IMG/VR virus record: IMGVR_UViG_3300045988_004318
Length of the DNA stretch: 5,757 nt
From: a virus
Direction: 5' to 3' (one strand)
Part shown: positions 1-5,757 of the stretch, piece after piece
Layout: the number at the start of each line of letters is the position of its first letter
Position numbering within the stretch: the stretch's first letter is position 1
Notes under the pieces: model-generated
The model's input: only the letters and a program-made list of their open reading frames with translations
Database searches by the model: none
Told to the model about the DNA's origin: nothing
Program-made: the position numbers and the translations under genes

Positions 1-39
1 AAAAAAAAAATAAAACAAGGTGGAATTTTGTCCACCTTG
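1..39 (-). terminator. Rho-independent terminator (duplicate copy at 5703..5741)
   Basis: Minus strand reads CAAGGTGGA-caaaat-TCCACCTTG, a perfect 9-bp stem (31..39 pairs with 16..24) with a 6-nt loop. It is followed by TTTTATTTTTTTTTT. It lies 11 nt downstream of the stop codon at 50..52. Confidence 0.8.
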
Positions 40-55
40 CTGATTTTAGTTATTT
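1..55. repeat. Terminal direct repeat, copy A; circularisation overlap of a 5,702-nt circular genome
   Basis: Bases 1..55 (aaaaaaaaaataaaacaaggtggaattttgtccaccttgctgattttagttattt) match 5703..5757 base for base. The match runs to the last base of the window. Confidence 0.95.
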
Positions 56-225: not shown

Positions 226-257
226 GTGTGTTCCTTTCTACACCTTTATTATACACC
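226..257 (-). promoter_or_regulatory. Candidate operator box overlapping the -10 and transcription start of promoter P1
   Basis: Minus strand reads GGTGTAtaataaaGGTGTAgaaaggaaCACAC. The same GGTGTA-N7-GGTGTA-N7/8-CACAC layout recurs at 1832..1863, with 17 of the first 19 nt identical. Confidence 0.35.
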
Positions 258-276
258 TAAAACATACACTTGTCAA
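248..276 (-). promoter_or_regulatory. Consensus sigma70/sigmaA-type promoter P1
   Basis: Minus strand has TTGACA (276..271), a 17-nt spacer (270..254) and TATAAT (253..248). An A-rich UP-like tract (aaaaacttaaaaaaatac) lies immediately upstream. The predicted start near 241 gives a leader of about 36 nt to the ATG at 205. Confidence 0.75.
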
Positions 277-400: not shown

Positions 401-1504
401 TTAGACCTCTGTGCGTATGAGTTTGCTCATTCGTTCTTGCATTTTTTTGTCTTTCAGGTTATAATATTCCTGCATGGTCAGGCCGGTCTGCTTGAGCTGA
501 GCAAAGAGAGCGTCGTTTGCGATTCTTCGGCGTTCTCGTTTAATTGCTTTCAGTTCTTCGGATTCGGCTTTTTCTGTTATATCTTCAATTTTTTGCACTT
601 CTTCATCTGTCAGCGGTTTCGCTCCGTGGTCGATGTCGAACAGCTTGTCAAAGTATCTTGGCGGTTTACAGATTTTACCGTTTTTTAGTTGTATTTGATC
701 TCTTTCGTAGATTTCCGCTGCATGGTCGTAATAGTATTGTGCGCCGATCGCCGGTTTTTTGCTCATAAGGCATTGTTCTGGCATGATGCCTAATTCTTCA
801 TAAAATTTTTTACCGTCCTTTCCGTAAATCTTTTTTGTTGTGTACCTTGCTGTGTATGCCATAGATCGCCATTCTGCTGGTGCTAGGATGACGTGTCCCA
901 TGCCCCAGATTTTTTCTAGCCATTCGCAGTTATAGTATGTGAATCCTCTTTCTTTCTTGTAAACTTTTAAATCTTCCTGTTTTATCGGTAGATCGTAGAC
1001 AATTGCGTGATAGTGCGGTCTGTGTGTCTGGCTGCCGTATTCGCCAGCTTGGAAATACATCAGCTTGCCTTTTCCTTTTTCGTGGTATTCTATGTGTCTT
1101 CTGAGACGTTTCCAGAATTTTTGCATGTCCTCATAGTTTAGACTGAGGTTTTCTGTTATCACTTCTCCTGTCAGTGTGTCCCATGTCGCTCGATATGGGA
1201 CATTTTCGTTATTATAGGTGATTGTTAGGAACCAGGCGTTTTCATGGTATGGCAGCTCCATTTCCATTCGGTTCGCCCAGGATGCTGCATTTGCCATTTT
1301 GCATCCAGGACAGTGCCCGCATGGCAGCAGTTGAGCGTTCTGTTCTTTGAGCAGCTTTTTAACTCGCTGTTCGTTCCACTTCTGTTGTCTTTGATCTGCG
1401 TCAAACTCTAGCCTTTCGCCTGTTTTTGACAAGTATGCCTTCAGGCTGACTACTCTTTCTTGTCTGTTGATGACGGTTCTAATCAATGGTCTCGTACATG
1501 GCAT
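401..1504 (-). CDS. VP4: Replication initiator protein VP4 (HUH rolling-circle endonuclease, Microviridae gene A/VP4 family), 367 aa
   Basis: Motif I is FLTITYN. The HUH motif is HYHAIVY, with H-Y-H encoded at 1007..1015. The tyrosine motif AYTARYTTKK has its Y codons at 854..856 and 842..844. The PCGHCPGCK cysteine cluster is typical of gokushovirus VP4. Start was moved to the ATG at 1504..1502, with AAGGAGG at 1523..1517 and a 12-nt spacer. The ORF-track start at 1540 is a TTG lying inside the upstream hairpin. Confidence 0.93.
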   Translation of the reverse strand: MPCTRPLIRTVINRQERVVSLKAYLSKTGERLEFDADQRQQKWNEQRVKKLLKEQNAQLLPCGHCPGCKMANAASWANRMEMELPYHENAWFLTITYNNENVPYRATWDTLTGEVITENLSLNYEDMQKFWKRLRRHIEYHEKGKGKLMYFQAGEYGSQTHRPHYHAIVYDLPIKQEDLKVYKKERGFTYYNCEWLEKIWGMGHVILAPAEWRSMAYTARYTTKKIYGKDGKKFYEELGIMPEQCLMSKKPAIGAQYYYDHAAEIYERDQIQLKNGKICKPPRYFDKLFDIDHGAKPLTDEEVQKIEDITEKAESEELKAIKRERRRIANDALFAQLKQTGLTMQEYYNLKDKKMQERMSKLIRTEV

Positions 1505-1528
1505 AGATGTTTCATGCCTCCTTCCTTG

Positions 1529-1569
1529 AATGAGCCCCAATAACCTTCTTGATGTTATTGGGGCTCATT
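1529..1569. repeat. Perfect 16-bp inverted repeat (stem-loop) immediately upstream of the VP4 ribosome-binding site
   Basis: aatgagccccaataac (1529..1544) pairs with gttattggggctcatt (1554..1569) around a 9-nt loop cttcttgat. On the minus strand the 3' arm ends 5 nt before the VP4 SD. No T-tract follows on either strand. Confidence 0.9.
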
Positions 1570-1644
1570 GACACAAAATTTAGATGCTGCTCGCTTCTCG
1601 TGATGGACAAATGTTGCTTCCCTGAGTGAGGCGGTAGCCGTAAC

Positions 1645-1812
1645 TCATGCTGTTTTGTATCCTAGCGCTTCTGCATATACATCAATTGCATCCCTTATGA
1701 TATCGCTGTCGATGTATTTATCATACAGTTTGCATGTTTTGATGTACTCTATTTCTTCGATCTGTTTTTGTGTTAGGTTGATGTTCATTCTTTTTGCCAT
1801 TTGGCTTCTCAT
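1645..1812 (-). CDS. Ribbon-helix-helix-like small DNA-binding protein, 55 aa (MRSQMAKRMNINLTQKQIEEIEYIKTCKLYDKYIDSDIIRDAIDVYAEALGYKTA); absent from the ORF track because it is under 60 aa
   Basis: ATG at 1812..1810 has AGGAGGG (1825..1819) 6 nt upstream and a TGA stop at 1647..1645. The pattern is a basic N-terminus, a beta-strand-like RMNINLT, a helix (QKQIEEIEYIK) and a second helix (SDIIRDAIDVYAEAL). This matches the CopG/Arc/MetJ RHH layout by eye. Confidence 0.6.
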   Translation of the reverse strand: MRSQMAKRMNINLTQKQIEEIEYIKTCKLYDKYIDSDIIRDAIDVYAEALGYKTA

Positions 1813-1831
1813 GGTATGCCCTCCTACTTTA

Positions 1832-1863
1832 GGTGTGCGATTCTTACACCCATATTATACACC
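1832..1863 (-). promoter_or_regulatory. Candidate operator box overlapping the -10 and transcription start of promoter P2
   Basis: Minus strand reads GGTGTAtaatatgGGTGTAagaatcgCACACC. The second GGTGTA and the CACACC form an imperfect inverted repeat (5 of 6). The layout parallels 226..257. Confidence 0.35.
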
Positions 1864-1882
1864 TCCTTTTTGTGTCTGTCAA
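1854..1882 (-). promoter_or_regulatory. Consensus sigma70/sigmaA-type promoter P2
   Basis: Minus strand has TTGACA (1882..1877), a 17-nt spacer (1876..1860) and TATAAT (1859..1854). The -35 box abuts the VP2 stop codon (1885..1883). The promoter drives the 55-aa RHH-like ORF and, downstream of it, VP4. Confidence 0.75.
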
Positions 1883-2868: not shown

Positions 2869-4506
2869 TTAGATCGTATCAAGGCCCGGTACGCTGTAGA
2901 TCGGCATGGGTCGTGTCCAGGTTTGGTCAAAGTAAAAATTGCAGATGAACTGATAGCTGTGGTTGGTGTCCTCAACTGCCAGCGTTCTGGCGATGTTTTC
3001 GGTACCTTCTTTGATCCAGTCGTTGGATAGTGTCGGTAGGCTTGTGTAATGATCTGCATAGTGCCATGCATCCAGGCTCTGAGCGTAGGTGCTGCGCATT
3101 TCGGATGTTACTATGTTTGTGCGGTACCTGTAATCGGCCCAGGCTTCTTGGTAGCCGAAAACTTCTTCATCCTGTGTGTTTCCCTGTGCATAGATTTCTT
3201 GATTCAACACTGGCTGCTCTCCCAAGTTTGCCAGCATTGGATCGTAGTAGCTGAATCGTGTGCTTCTCGTCCACAATCTGCCCAAACCCTGCTGATAGCT
3301 GTGATCTACTCGCACGCAGCACAGGCCCAGCACATAGCCGTGTTCTGTTGCGCTGTAGGTGCACATGTGTCTGGACATTGTTGTCATGCTGTAGGCTGCC
3401 GTGTTGCCCTGCGGACTGGTCGTGCTTGTGCTTGATGTTTGAACGACCTGGTTGATGTTGATTGGCATTCTGTAGCCGCCGATGTATTCGCTTCGGTCAA
3501 GTCGTGCGTCCGGTGAGGTTACACCCCAGGCCCCTTTCAGGATTTCTTTGTACCTGGTTCCAGTCCTGGCATCTCGCTCTAGGATGTGCTGTACTGCGAT
3601 GGAGTTTCGGAGTTCGTTGATGCTGATTCCTGATACAGCGGTAAGGTCGGCTTGCAGGTTGCCGGTGGCTACTTTCAGTACATTGCCTGTAGGTTCGCTG
3701 TATCCGGTAATTCTTGTTGCGATTGTATTTGGGTCATTTACAGCGTTTGAAATGTATGATGTTGCGTCATTGCTTGTCGTGTCCAGATAAATTACTTTAT
3801 CTGTTTTTTGTCCGTTTTCAGTCAGCCATACCGGTGCCAGGCCTGCCAGGCCGATTTCTACTCCCTGGCCTTTTTGCGGCTGCGGCAAACTGCTGGTGAA
3901 GTAGTCTTTGTGTTTGCAGACTTTGAGGATCCCCAGTCCTCTTTCTGGTTTTTCGATGTCTTTTAGGTTTTCTTTGTATTCGAGTGTTTCGTCTCCTGTG
4001 TAGACATCCACTGGCTGCTGAAGGTTTTCATCTCTGAACCACTCGTTCCAGATCTTCGCATAGGCATTGAACGGCATTCTGTTCACTTCAAGGTTGGGCA
4101 CTCCCGTTGGGATTCCCATGTAGTCTGCGATTGATCCGACTTCCCAGCCTGTTGTAGGAGGTGCTTTTGCCGTGGGTGTTGTGTATTCTACTGTTTCTGC
4201 CCAGAAGCTGCTGTCATTCTGGCCCATCATGTTTACAAAGTGGTTCCAGAGCAGGCGGCTCGGTACGAAGAAGAAGAAAATATCCATGTTACAGTTGTCC
4301 ATAACAGGATAAAGCGGAGTAGCCATGCGCACCAAACCGTTTACATCGATTTTGAAAGTATCGCCGGGAAGCACCTCGTCAACATAGATTGGCACCAGAT
4401 CGCCTTCGTTGAGTGTGGTCAGCAGTGAAAAATCTCTTTTGAATCGGCTTCTTCTGATTTCTGCGTGCGGCACTTGGGAATAGTGCTGTTCACTGTTTCT
4501 GTTCAT
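2869..4506 (-). CDS. VP1: VP1 major capsid protein (Microviridae F/VP1 family), 545 aa
   Basis: The N-terminus is canonical: RSRFKRDFSLLTTLNEGDLVPIYVDEVLPGDTF...MATPLYPVMDN...IFFFFVPSRLLW. Later blocks include INELRNSIAVQHILERDARTGTRYKEIL, and the C-terminus is YSVPGLDTI. GGAGG lies 8 nt before the ATG at 4506. Length fits gokushovirus VP1. Confidence 0.97.
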   Translation of the reverse strand: MNRNSEQHYSQVPHAEIRRSRFKRDFSLLTTLNEGDLVPIYVDEVLPGDTFKIDVNGLVRMATPLYPVMDNCNMDIFFFFVPSRLLWNHFVNMMGQNDSSFWAETVEYTTPTAKAPPTTGWEVGSIADYMGIPTGVPNLEVNRMPFNAYAKIWNEWFRDENLQQPVDVYTGDETLEYKENLKDIEKPERGLGILKVCKHKDYFTSSLPQPQKGQGVEIGLAGLAPVWLTENGQKTDKVIYLDTTSNDATSYISNAVNDPNTIATRITGYSEPTGNVLKVATGNLQADLTAVSGISINELRNSIAVQHILERDARTGTRYKEILKGAWGVTSPDARLDRSEYIGGYRMPININQVVQTSSTSTTSPQGNTAAYSMTTMSRHMCTYSATEHGYVLGLCCVRVDHSYQQGLGRLWTRSTRFSYYDPMLANLGEQPVLNQEIYAQGNTQDEEVFGYQEAWADYRYRTNIVTSEMRSTYAQSLDAWHYADHYTSLPTLSNDWIKEGTENIARTLAVEDTNHSYQFICNFYFDQTWTRPMPIYSVPGLDTI

Positions 4507-4992: not shown

Positions 4993-5242
4993 CCTTTTTT
5001 TCCTCCATGCTCTTTTTCACCTGTTCGATGTTCCATTCCAGCTCCGGCATACACGGTGCGATCATGCCGGTTTCGGTGTCGTACTGCCCCAGATGATAGA
5101 CCCGCTTATCCTCGCAGTCGCTTTTTTCCATCTCTTGGGTCATCCACTTGAAGGTTCTTTCCTTAACAATCGGGTTGATGACCATGATGTTGCCAAAGGT
5201 TCCTGCCAGCTCGTCCTTGATAGCATAAAGTTCAAAAGTCAT
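4985..5242 (-). CDS. VP5-like small nonstructural protein, 85 aa (MTFELYAIKDELAGTFGN...LGQYDTETGMI...)
   Basis: The pattern M.F.LY.IKD...G.F......R.F......LG.YD..TG.I resembles my recollection of gokushovirus ORF5/VP5 proteins, as do its size and its position upstream of VP3. Start was trimmed to the ATG at 5242..5240, with GGAGG 9 nt upstream. The ORF-track start at 5278 has no SD. Confidence 0.6.
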   Translation of the reverse strand: MTFELYAIKDELAGTFGNIMVINPIVKERTFKWMTQEMEKSDCEDKRVYHLGQYDTETGMIAPCMPELEWNIEQVKKSMEEKKDG

Positions 5243-5432
5243 TGTTGTTATCCTCCATAACCTCGTTGATGATATCATTTTTGTGATATTTCATCCCATA
5301 TTCGATTGCTTTTCGTGTCGCTGCCGGCACGCTGCATCCCAGTTCTTCTGCCAGATCATCAATATCGGCTGCTGTGTCGTACCTCAGTCTCACTGTCAGT
5401 GTGCAGCATGCCATGTTCTTGATGCTCTTCAC
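5232..5432 (-). CDS. Second ribbon-helix-helix-like small protein, 66 aa (from the GTG) or 60 aa (from the ATG at 5414)
   Basis: The layout is strand-like TLTVRLR, helix TAADIDDLAEELG, then helix SVPAATRKAIEYGMKY, which fits an RHH fold. The GTG at 5432..5430 overlaps the upstream TGA (GTGA) and has GGGGAGGG 9 nt upstream. The C-terminal tail is acidic. Confidence 0.55.
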   Translation of the reverse strand: MKSIKNMACCTLTVRLRYDTAADIDDLAEELGCSVPAATRKAIEYGMKYHKNDIINEVMEDNNNDF

Positions 5433-5655: not shown

Positions 5656-5702
5656 TTTTTTCAGCCTCCTTTTGGTAATTTTGTTTATATTCCCATTCTA
5701 TC

Positions 5703-5757
5703 AAAAAAAAAATAAAACAAGGTGGAATTTTGTCCACCTTGCTGATTTTAGTTATTT
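5703..5757. repeat. Terminal direct repeat, copy B; duplicates the terminator and the last codons of the 51-aa ORF
   Basis: Identical to 1..55. Offset is 5702 nt. Confidence 0.95.

Follow-up and report, generated by a model that had tools for sequence, protein, structure and literature searches.

Neither the ribbon-helix-helix (RHH) fold nor autoregulation of rep operons is new; RHH proteins are obligate dimers whose two-stranded antiparallel sheet is inserted in the major groove. Gene expression of microviruses is usually described as unregulated and set by promoter and terminator strength, as in phiX174. In the pMV158 family of rolling-circle plasmids an RHH protein of the 45–55 amino acid (aa) class, CopG, is encoded directly upstream of the HUH initiator RepB and co-oriented with it behind a single strong promoter, and a hairpin presenting the nick site is close by. 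The target of CopG is a pseudosymmetric site of 13 bp at the −35 box (PMC2724298). In the archaeal plasmid pRN1 the RHH copy-control repressor ORF56 is co-transcribed with the replication protein ORF904 (PMC4234260). RHH accessories of HUH relaxases (TraY, TrwA, NikA, MobC, Aux1/Aux2 of pLS20) act beside the nick site, and several of them autoregulate their own operon (PMC5675868, PMC4175270). Here we describe a locus of similar layout in a virus genome, IMG/VR record IMGVR_UViG_3300045988_004318 (5,757 nucleotides, further referred to as the window), where a promoter (P2), a 55-aa RHH protein gene and a perfect hairpin precede the gene of the replication initiator VP4. We interpret it as a putative clade-specific replication-control module, with the hairpin being a separate, probably origin-type element.

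The window comprises the complete, circular genome of a gokushovirus, with bases 1–57 recurring at 5701–5757; hence the unit is 5700 nt long. The minus strand carries all its genes. Promoter P2 (TTGACA-17 nt-TATAAT; −35 box at 1882..1877, −10 box at 1859..1854, minus strand) matches the sigma-70 consensus in 12/12 positions and is conserved among 40 distinct relatives. It is followed by the 55-aa open reading frame (ORF; 1645..1812, minus strand), with the Shine-Dalgarno sequence AGGAGG, as read from the sequence, at 1825..1820 (minus strand), 7 nt before the ATG. Next come the hairpin, with arms at 1529–1544 and 1554–1569, and VP4 (401..1504, minus strand, 367 aa), a rolling-circle replication initiator that matches PF23343 (1.6e-14) and phrog_942 (1.6e-96) and contains the HUH motif HYHAIV and the YxxxY motif YTARY. 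The purine-rich Shine-Dalgarno region of VP4, GGAAGGAGG (1525..1517, minus strand), is 12 nt before the ATG and 3 nt from the end of the hairpin. The preliminary description of this DNA had the promoter, the perfect 16-bp hairpin beside the VP4 Shine-Dalgarno region and the HUH assignment of VP4 right. The spacer of 133 nt given there should be corrected: VP4 starts at the ATG 1504..1502, a start kept as M-x-C-x-R-P among relatives, and therefore 140 nt (1505–1644) separate the stop codon of the RHH gene from this ATG.

The same description had likened the arrangement to copG-repB. The likeness holds for a conserved promoter, an RHH gene and an HUH initiator in this order; membership in the pMV158 family does not. 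The initiator is of the phiX-A/VP4 type (PF23343, YxxxY) and not RepB (Rep_2), the origin-like hairpin lies between the RHH gene and rep instead of upstream of the promoter, and the candidate operator is a direct pair of GGTGTA boxes over the −10/+1 region of two promoters. The antisense-RNA layer known from the plasmids found no counterpart: there are no promoter-like sites on the plus strand near 1400–1650, the nearest one (9/12) is at 1697–1724, and an Rfam scan of the window gave no matches. The pRN1 pair is similar in the combination of an RHH protein with a replication protein, and one member of the family studied here weakly matches the NCBIfam model of ORF56; the host of pRN1 is an archaeon, its replication protein is of the primase-polymerase type, and the relationship is limited to the shared fold. 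As with the relaxase accessories, the RHH gene adjoins a hairpin-associated site presumably nicked by an HUH enzyme. Those proteins serve conjugative transfer and not phage replication, and beside the hairpin of the window no box was found.

A word-index search with the 55-aa protein yielded 23 homologues (65–95% identity), and an exhaustive profile search extended the family to 30 clusters at 50% identity, short proteins throughout. The gene is found between VP2 and VP4 at 32 IMG/VR loci (37–96% identity) and on further contigs, all of them microvirus genomes of 5.1–5.9 kb; the position was scored wherever both neighbours are on the contig. It is conserved in every related genome fetched, and so are the promoter and the hairpin. 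The ratio of nonsynonymous to synonymous substitution rates (dN/dS), calculated pairwise against the window, equals 0.04–0.2 even near saturation of synonymous sites. The ORF is thus a gene under strong purifying selection, as the preliminary description had assumed in calling it one.

The family consensus reads M-K-S-Q-x-x-K-R-I-N-I-N-L-T-(helix)-...-S-D-I-I-R-D-A-I-x-x-Y-A. Within the strand segment KRMNINLT of the window protein (K7-R8-M9-N10-I11-N12-L13-T14), conservation over 36 sequences is complete or reaches at least 90% at residues R8, N10, N12, L13 and T14. The segment shows the alternation of polar (DNA-facing) and hydrophobic (core-facing) residues typical of RHH proteins and aligns to R4, T6 and T8 of CopG. 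R8, N10 and N12, which vary little or not at all within the family, are the predicted DNA-reading residues. AlphaFold2 supplied with the alignment produced a model with a predicted local distance difference test (pLDDT) score of 85, containing an extended segment (residues 8–14) and two helices (residues 15–27 and 35–49). An extended N-terminal segment with two helices is the topology of an RHH monomer (beta-alpha-alpha, about 45–55 residues). A single-sequence model (pLDDT 71, no Foldseek matches) was dropped in favour of the alignment-based one. The top Foldseek matches in PDB are mostly RHH proteins (YiiF, HicB, AtaR, Arc, ParD, PrpA, MazE-mt1, ParB of pCXC100), with template modelling (TM) scores of 0.5–0.68, and the best named matches of the fold search in BFVD are CopG/Arc-like phage proteins.

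Sequence comparisons point the same way. Pfam RHH_1 matches 14 of the 36 family members (best E-value 9e-4, below the gathering score), and the weak NCBIfam matches among the family, aCcr1 (9/36), NikR and ORF56, are all to RHH families; the window protein itself has no Pfam or NCBIfam matches. A PDB profile search with the family gave TTHA0139 (E = 0.054) and CopG (1b01/2cpg, E = 0.7), and a PDB sequence search with a profile of close homologues gave no matches. Alignment of the family against CopG by hhalign covered the whole of CopG by residues 6–48 with 77% probability (E = 2e-5) and paired KRMNINLT with KKRLTITL. Structure prediction, fold search and profile comparison agree that the product is an RHH protein, which is what the preliminary description had supposed.

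Many family members (loci L025–L028, L030, L034, L035, L038 (KX513873), L286 and L285; proteins P0024, P0030, P0033, P0034, P0037, P0040 and P0050) carry C-terminal extensions with the endings ...EEEDLPF, DDDLPF or EDKLPF; the window protein has no such extension. Endings of the form ...(D/E)(D/E)(D/E)LPF are present in 7 of the 30 clusters and at many loci. The ...DLPF type resembles the C-terminal tip DDDIPF/DDDLPF of SSB, the bacterial protein that binds single-stranded DNA (PMC5872125, PMC5531588). Alternatively, the -LPF ending may be a ClpXP degron (PMC5143411).

In GenBank, KX513873, MG945569 and MT135351 carry the RHH gene without annotation, and none of the microvirus records examined annotates it. 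Searched by tblastn with the 55-aa sequence, the phages of GenBank gave a single match; this search is insensitive, since KX513873 and MT135351 also encode members of the family. No paper tying microviruses to RHH or CopG proteins was found in the searchable literature. The gene appears to be outside the described gokushovirus set, as had been proposed, and the novelty appears to lie in the setting, a putative RHH regulator gene in microviruses, located only in related gut gokushoviruses, between their VP2 and VP4 genes. A scan of GTDB genomes gave one match, to the N-terminal part of an RsmG-like gene in a metagenome-assembled genome of Tenericutes; this match was false and therefore gave no clue to a host or prophage. 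The GTDB genomes yielded no integrated, prophage or cellular copy; therefore the suggested role in a carrier state is without support.

A scan of the genome for promoters gave 13 promoter-like sites against 5.7 expected, and just two of them score 12/12, P2 and a second promoter P1 (276..248, minus strand). The operator-like region at P2 (1832..1863, minus strand) contains GGTGTA at 1863..1858, overlapping the −10 box, and again at 1850..1845, around +1, the two boxes being 13 nt apart. It also contains a short inverted repeat, GGTGT at 1850..1846 and ACACC at 1836..1832 (minus strand), with one covarying pair. At P1, GGTGTA is found at 257..252 and 244..239, and AGTGTA stands beside the −35 box at 270..265. 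The consensus of P2, derived from 40 distinct sequences, is TTGACA-aacacagAAAaGA-GGTGTATAwT-ATGr-GTGTA-cnAATCacACACyt, and that of P1, derived from 25 sequences, is TTGACA-AGTGtATa....A-GGTGTATAAT-AaAg-GTGTA-gaaAGga. Hence in both promoters one GGTGTA covers the −10 box and another follows 13 nt downstream. The 40 P2 and 25 P1 variants agree in every box column, and the GGTGTA positions are not explained by the contacts of RNA polymerase alone. The window contains six copies of GGTGTA against 1.5 expected, four of them in P1 and P2.

The RHH gene, detected with the family profile, is present in 9 of the 9 sampled genomes of the clade and in none of 90 other microvirus genomes. The GGTGTA box pair is found in 8 of the 9 genomes of the RHH clade and, again, in none of the 90 others. 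The sister clade (L276, L245, L252, L271) has the same gene order, with VP1 about 55% and Rep about 48% identical to those of the window, and it is without P2, without the RHH gene and without the box pair. In a remote homologue (P0048, contig L287) the strand reads RSVINFT, and the promoter is different, TTGACT-17-TATACT, overlapped by the palindrome GTATATAT/ATATATAC; in this case operator and reading residues seem to have changed together. These patterns of genes and boxes are those expected of a repressor and its operator, and we infer binding from them.

We therefore propose, with somewhat more confidence than doubt and from comparison of sequences, that the locus is a clade-specific replication-control module in which the RHH protein would repress P2 and P1 through the GGTGTA boxes. 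P2 would be transcribed into the RHH gene and then, by read-through across the origin element, into VP4; the genome scan found no terminator-like or strong promoter-like site between the two genes. Accumulated RHH dimers would occupy the paired boxes of both promoters, and the occupied boxes would occlude RNA polymerase or prevent formation of the open complex. The outcome would be negative feedback on synthesis of the RHH protein and Rep (P2) and on the P1 unit reading toward the structural genes, which would stop at the sole strong terminator (41..14), just ahead of these genes. The hairpin would stay outside this transcriptional loop, VP4 presumably nicking CTTG^AT in its loop, ahead of the TGACAC flank. 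In the RHH clade the element is inverted, and the nicked strand would be the non-coding one. The RHH protein may have a second, non-exclusive role, assisting at the origin as RHH proteins do for HUH relaxases.

Several observations weigh against this proposal. The Foldseek E-values are 0.3 or higher, a weakness to be expected at 55 residues, the RHH sequence matches of the window protein itself all fall below curated thresholds, and the model, being a single chain, cannot display the dimeric beta-sheet. The 13-nt spacing of the boxes is outside the 7–11 nt typical of characterised RHH operators. The variable pair of the short inverted repeat at P2 is GC in seven cases, AU in six and GU in four, and never A.C; conservation 3' of the −10 box could partly reflect a stem in the 5' untranslated region. 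A 66-aa ORF with a DNA-binding-like product (5232–5432) could bind the boxes instead, a possibility weakened by several genomes that keep the boxes without that ORF. Finally, the SSB-tip-like ...DLPF tail of some members points to a role in replication and not to pure repression.

The hairpin is the strongest one of the genome, with arms of 16 nt that are 100% complementary and a 9-nt loop. The whole origin-like element occupies 1529..1578 on the plus, non-coding strand: the stem (1529–1544 and 1554–1569), the loop CTTCTTGAT (1545–1553) and the flank (T)GACACAAAA (1569/1570–1578), so that the plus strand reads stem-CTTCTTGAT-stem-TGACACAAAA, with …AACCTTCTTGATGTTATT… in the loop stretch. Among 20 distinct variants, changes on both sides are seen in 13 of the 16 stem pairs, and 92.7% of cells are paired; none of 500 shuffles reached the observed values, and slid controls collapsed. 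No variation is seen in the loop, ATCAAGA when read on the coding strand, or in the 5' flank, TTGTGTCA. We place the presumed nick site between G1551 and A1552, again by inference from sequence.

The annotated viral-strand origin of phiX174 (rep_origin at 4306) reads CAACTTG^ATATTAATAACACTATAGACCAC; the shared CTTGAT (CAACTTG^ATATTAATAAC in phiX174) is in the loop here, while the phiX174 site is inside gene A and not in a long hairpin. Hairpins of the same type are found in Chp2 (L282, 2904–2951: CTAGCGTATAACAG-tctacttgat-CTGTTATACGCTAG-gtgatagc, between VP3 and the J and Rep genes) and in SpV4 (L284, 512–544: TGGGGCATAT-attacttgttata-ATATGCCCCA-ttgacgac, upstream of the J and Rep genes). In the sister clade, stem-CCTTCTTGAT-stem-TGACACAAAA directly precedes the Rep Shine-Dalgarno sequence. 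For further comparison 80 genomes were fetched through a Rep relative (L288–L367). In at least 55 of them a hairpin shows ..(A/C)CTTGAT.. in its loop and is followed by ..CTGACAC; loop and arm of L300 together read CAACTTGATATTAAC, the same 15 nt with which the phiX174 origin begins. The same element is present at 2267–2311 of L130, at about 4650–4700 of L276, and in L134 and L245/252/271/276. DNA pattern scans gave mostly chance matches, which were filtered by hairpin formation. The strand that encodes Rep carries the element in phiX174, Chp2, SpV4, the sister clade and the further genomes (at least 55), with no inverted case among them; in contrast, every genome of the RHH clade has it inverted, on the non-coding strand. 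No second origin-like or nick-candidate hairpin was found in the window genome.

The hairpin is probably a replication origin of the gokushovirus type, because its CTTCTTGAT loop and TGACACAAAA flank match the phiX174 nick site (CAACTTG^ATA) and because such a hairpin is located upstream of Rep in most gokushoviruses. The preliminary description had taken it for a plasmid-style intergenic control element. It is not one of the copG-repB type, since it occurs gokushovirus-wide upstream of Rep with or without the RHH gene. No description of the CTTGAT/TGACAC element was found in the searchable literature. Conserved hairpins with compensatory changes upstream of Rep are known in other small microviruses, where their role was left open (PMC9865509).

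A probable origin beside the RHH gene gives room for a different account of the protein, in which it would chiefly be an accessory factor of the origin, helping VP4 to melt or nick the DNA at the hairpin, with promoter binding secondary or absent; in the tailed relatives it would also recruit host replication proteins. The gene directly flanks the hairpin, its gain coincides with inversion of the element, SSB-tip-like endings occur in 7 of the 30 clusters, and relaxosome RHH accessory proteins that also autoregulate are documented (PMC5675868, PMC4175270). The 9-mer GACACAAAA of the hairpin flank (1570–1578, plus strand) recurs, inverted, in the P2 spacer beside the −35 box (1868–1876, plus strand). 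Rep or the RHH protein might contact both GACACAAAA sites, or the recurrence could be a by-product of the TTGACA hexamer. We nevertheless find this account rather unlikely: the window protein has no SSB-tip-like tail, the -LPF ending may instead be the degron mentioned above (PMC5143411), just GTGTC and no GGTGTA box is found beside the hairpin, and boxes placed exactly on −10/+1 of two promoters have the geometry of a repressor. Moreover, the two roles are compatible and do not exclude each other.

That the hairpin serves as a complementary-strand origin (primosome or primase recognition, as in phiX174 and G4) and not as the nick site of Rep is less probable still. Comparable hairpins upstream of Rep have been proposed as negative-strand initiation signals (PMC9865509), but the loop is the viral-strand nick sequence of phiX174, loop plus arm of L300 match the full first 15 nt of that origin, and the genome offers no other candidate for a nick hairpin. 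The same consequence for strand polarity would still follow. Least probable of all is a function of the hairpin as RNA in the P2 transcript, in VP4 translation, mRNA stability or attenuation, as a plasmid-like second layer: the stem does stop 3 nt short of the purine-rich block, the 12-nt gap to the VP4 ATG is long and the RNA fold of 1490–1650 has a z-score of −2.6, but transcription meets the element in the opposite orientation in the sister clade, in at least 55 other genomes and in Chp2 and SpV4, so that different clades would have different transcribed forms of the conserved loop, this loop matches the nick site of phiX174, no U-tract follows the stem, neither an antisense promoter nor an Rfam match was found, and the stem mismatches described below are of the A:C type on the coding strand.

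If VP4 nicks CTTG^AT as protein A of phiX174 does, the displaced strand in the RHH clade would be the non-coding one, and virions would contain antisense DNA. We regard such antisense packaging as a tentative possibility, weaker than the repressor proposal. Equally tentative is the wider scenario in which, with the origin inverted, VP4 displacing the non-coding strand and the virions antisense, these phages would be the first negative-sense microviruses, and P2, the RHH gene and the boxes would have been gained as an adaptation. Joint acquisition might, for example, silence transcription so that head-on replication forks are not blocked at every gene, and the SSB-tip-like tails of relatives might bring host replisome factors to the inverted origin.

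Base composition was considered as evidence on polarity and rejected. At four-fold degenerate sites of the coding strand the window has A 0.46 and T 0.12, and the syntenic sister clade has T 0.42–0.70; the AT skew at these sites is +0.4 to +0.7 in the RHH clade and −0.4 to −0.65 in the sister clade. Values between −0.83 and +0.54 are found among the 80 genomes of canonical orientation, and the skew is therefore uninformative on polarity. The stem mismatches are seven A:C when read on the coding strand, equivalent to G:T on the opposite one, and none of the reverse kind. This asymmetry fits folding of the CTTGAT-bearing strand and could equally be a mutation bias; canonical genomes yield too few stem mismatches to calibrate it.

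The order of the minus-strand genes of the window is a 35-aa ORF, a J/VP8-like basic peptide, the 66-aa ORF, ORF5 (PF20577), the VP3 scaffold (PF09675), the VP1 capsid (PF02305, E = 1e-163), the VP2 pilot, the 55-aa ORF, VP4 Rep and a 51-aa ORF. The closest GenBank records are gut Microviridae; over parts of the genome their DNA is about 75% identical. The 66-aa ORF (5232–5432, minus strand), located between the J-like gene and ORF5, encodes a small DNA-binding-like protein, which hhalign aligns to CopG with 84% probability (E = 7e-6) and which also has weak helix-turn-helix matches; it is present in part of the clade genomes only. P1 precedes a small clade-variable ORF (50–205, the 51-aa ORF here) and then the sole strong intrinsic terminator of the coding strand (14..41, minus strand; duplicated at 5716–5743 through the circular overlap). 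The terminator may close the P1/P2 transcription unit or, alternatively, attenuate read-through toward the structural genes, which have no evident promoter of their own and therefore may depend on read-through.

Other non-coding features accompany VP4. The gap between its Shine-Dalgarno region and the ATG is unusually long, 10–14 nt across all relatives, and is occupied by the conserved block GAAACATCT (1505–1516, minus strand). The spacer upstream contains a further conserved block, GCAACATTTGTCCAT (1603..1617, minus strand), which divergent relatives keep as GCAACATTTRTCCAT. Just 3' of the VP4 stop codon and 5' of P1, at 298–345, there is a nested inverted repeat rich in GC, GCTGTCC...TCGGCCG-tggt-CGGCCGA...GGACAGC.

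A dedicated DNA-binding regulator next to Rep in gokushoviruses abundant in the human and animal gut, if the proposal is true, would be an extra layer of control in the smallest DNA phages, and it would consist of a concrete protein and a 6-bp box on two promoters. The by-product may matter more: the phiX174-like hairpin with CTTGAT ahead of Rep appears to be the origin of gokushoviruses, which has long gone undefined, and its inversion in exactly the clade that bears the RHH gene puts the polarity of the packaged strand of these phages in question.

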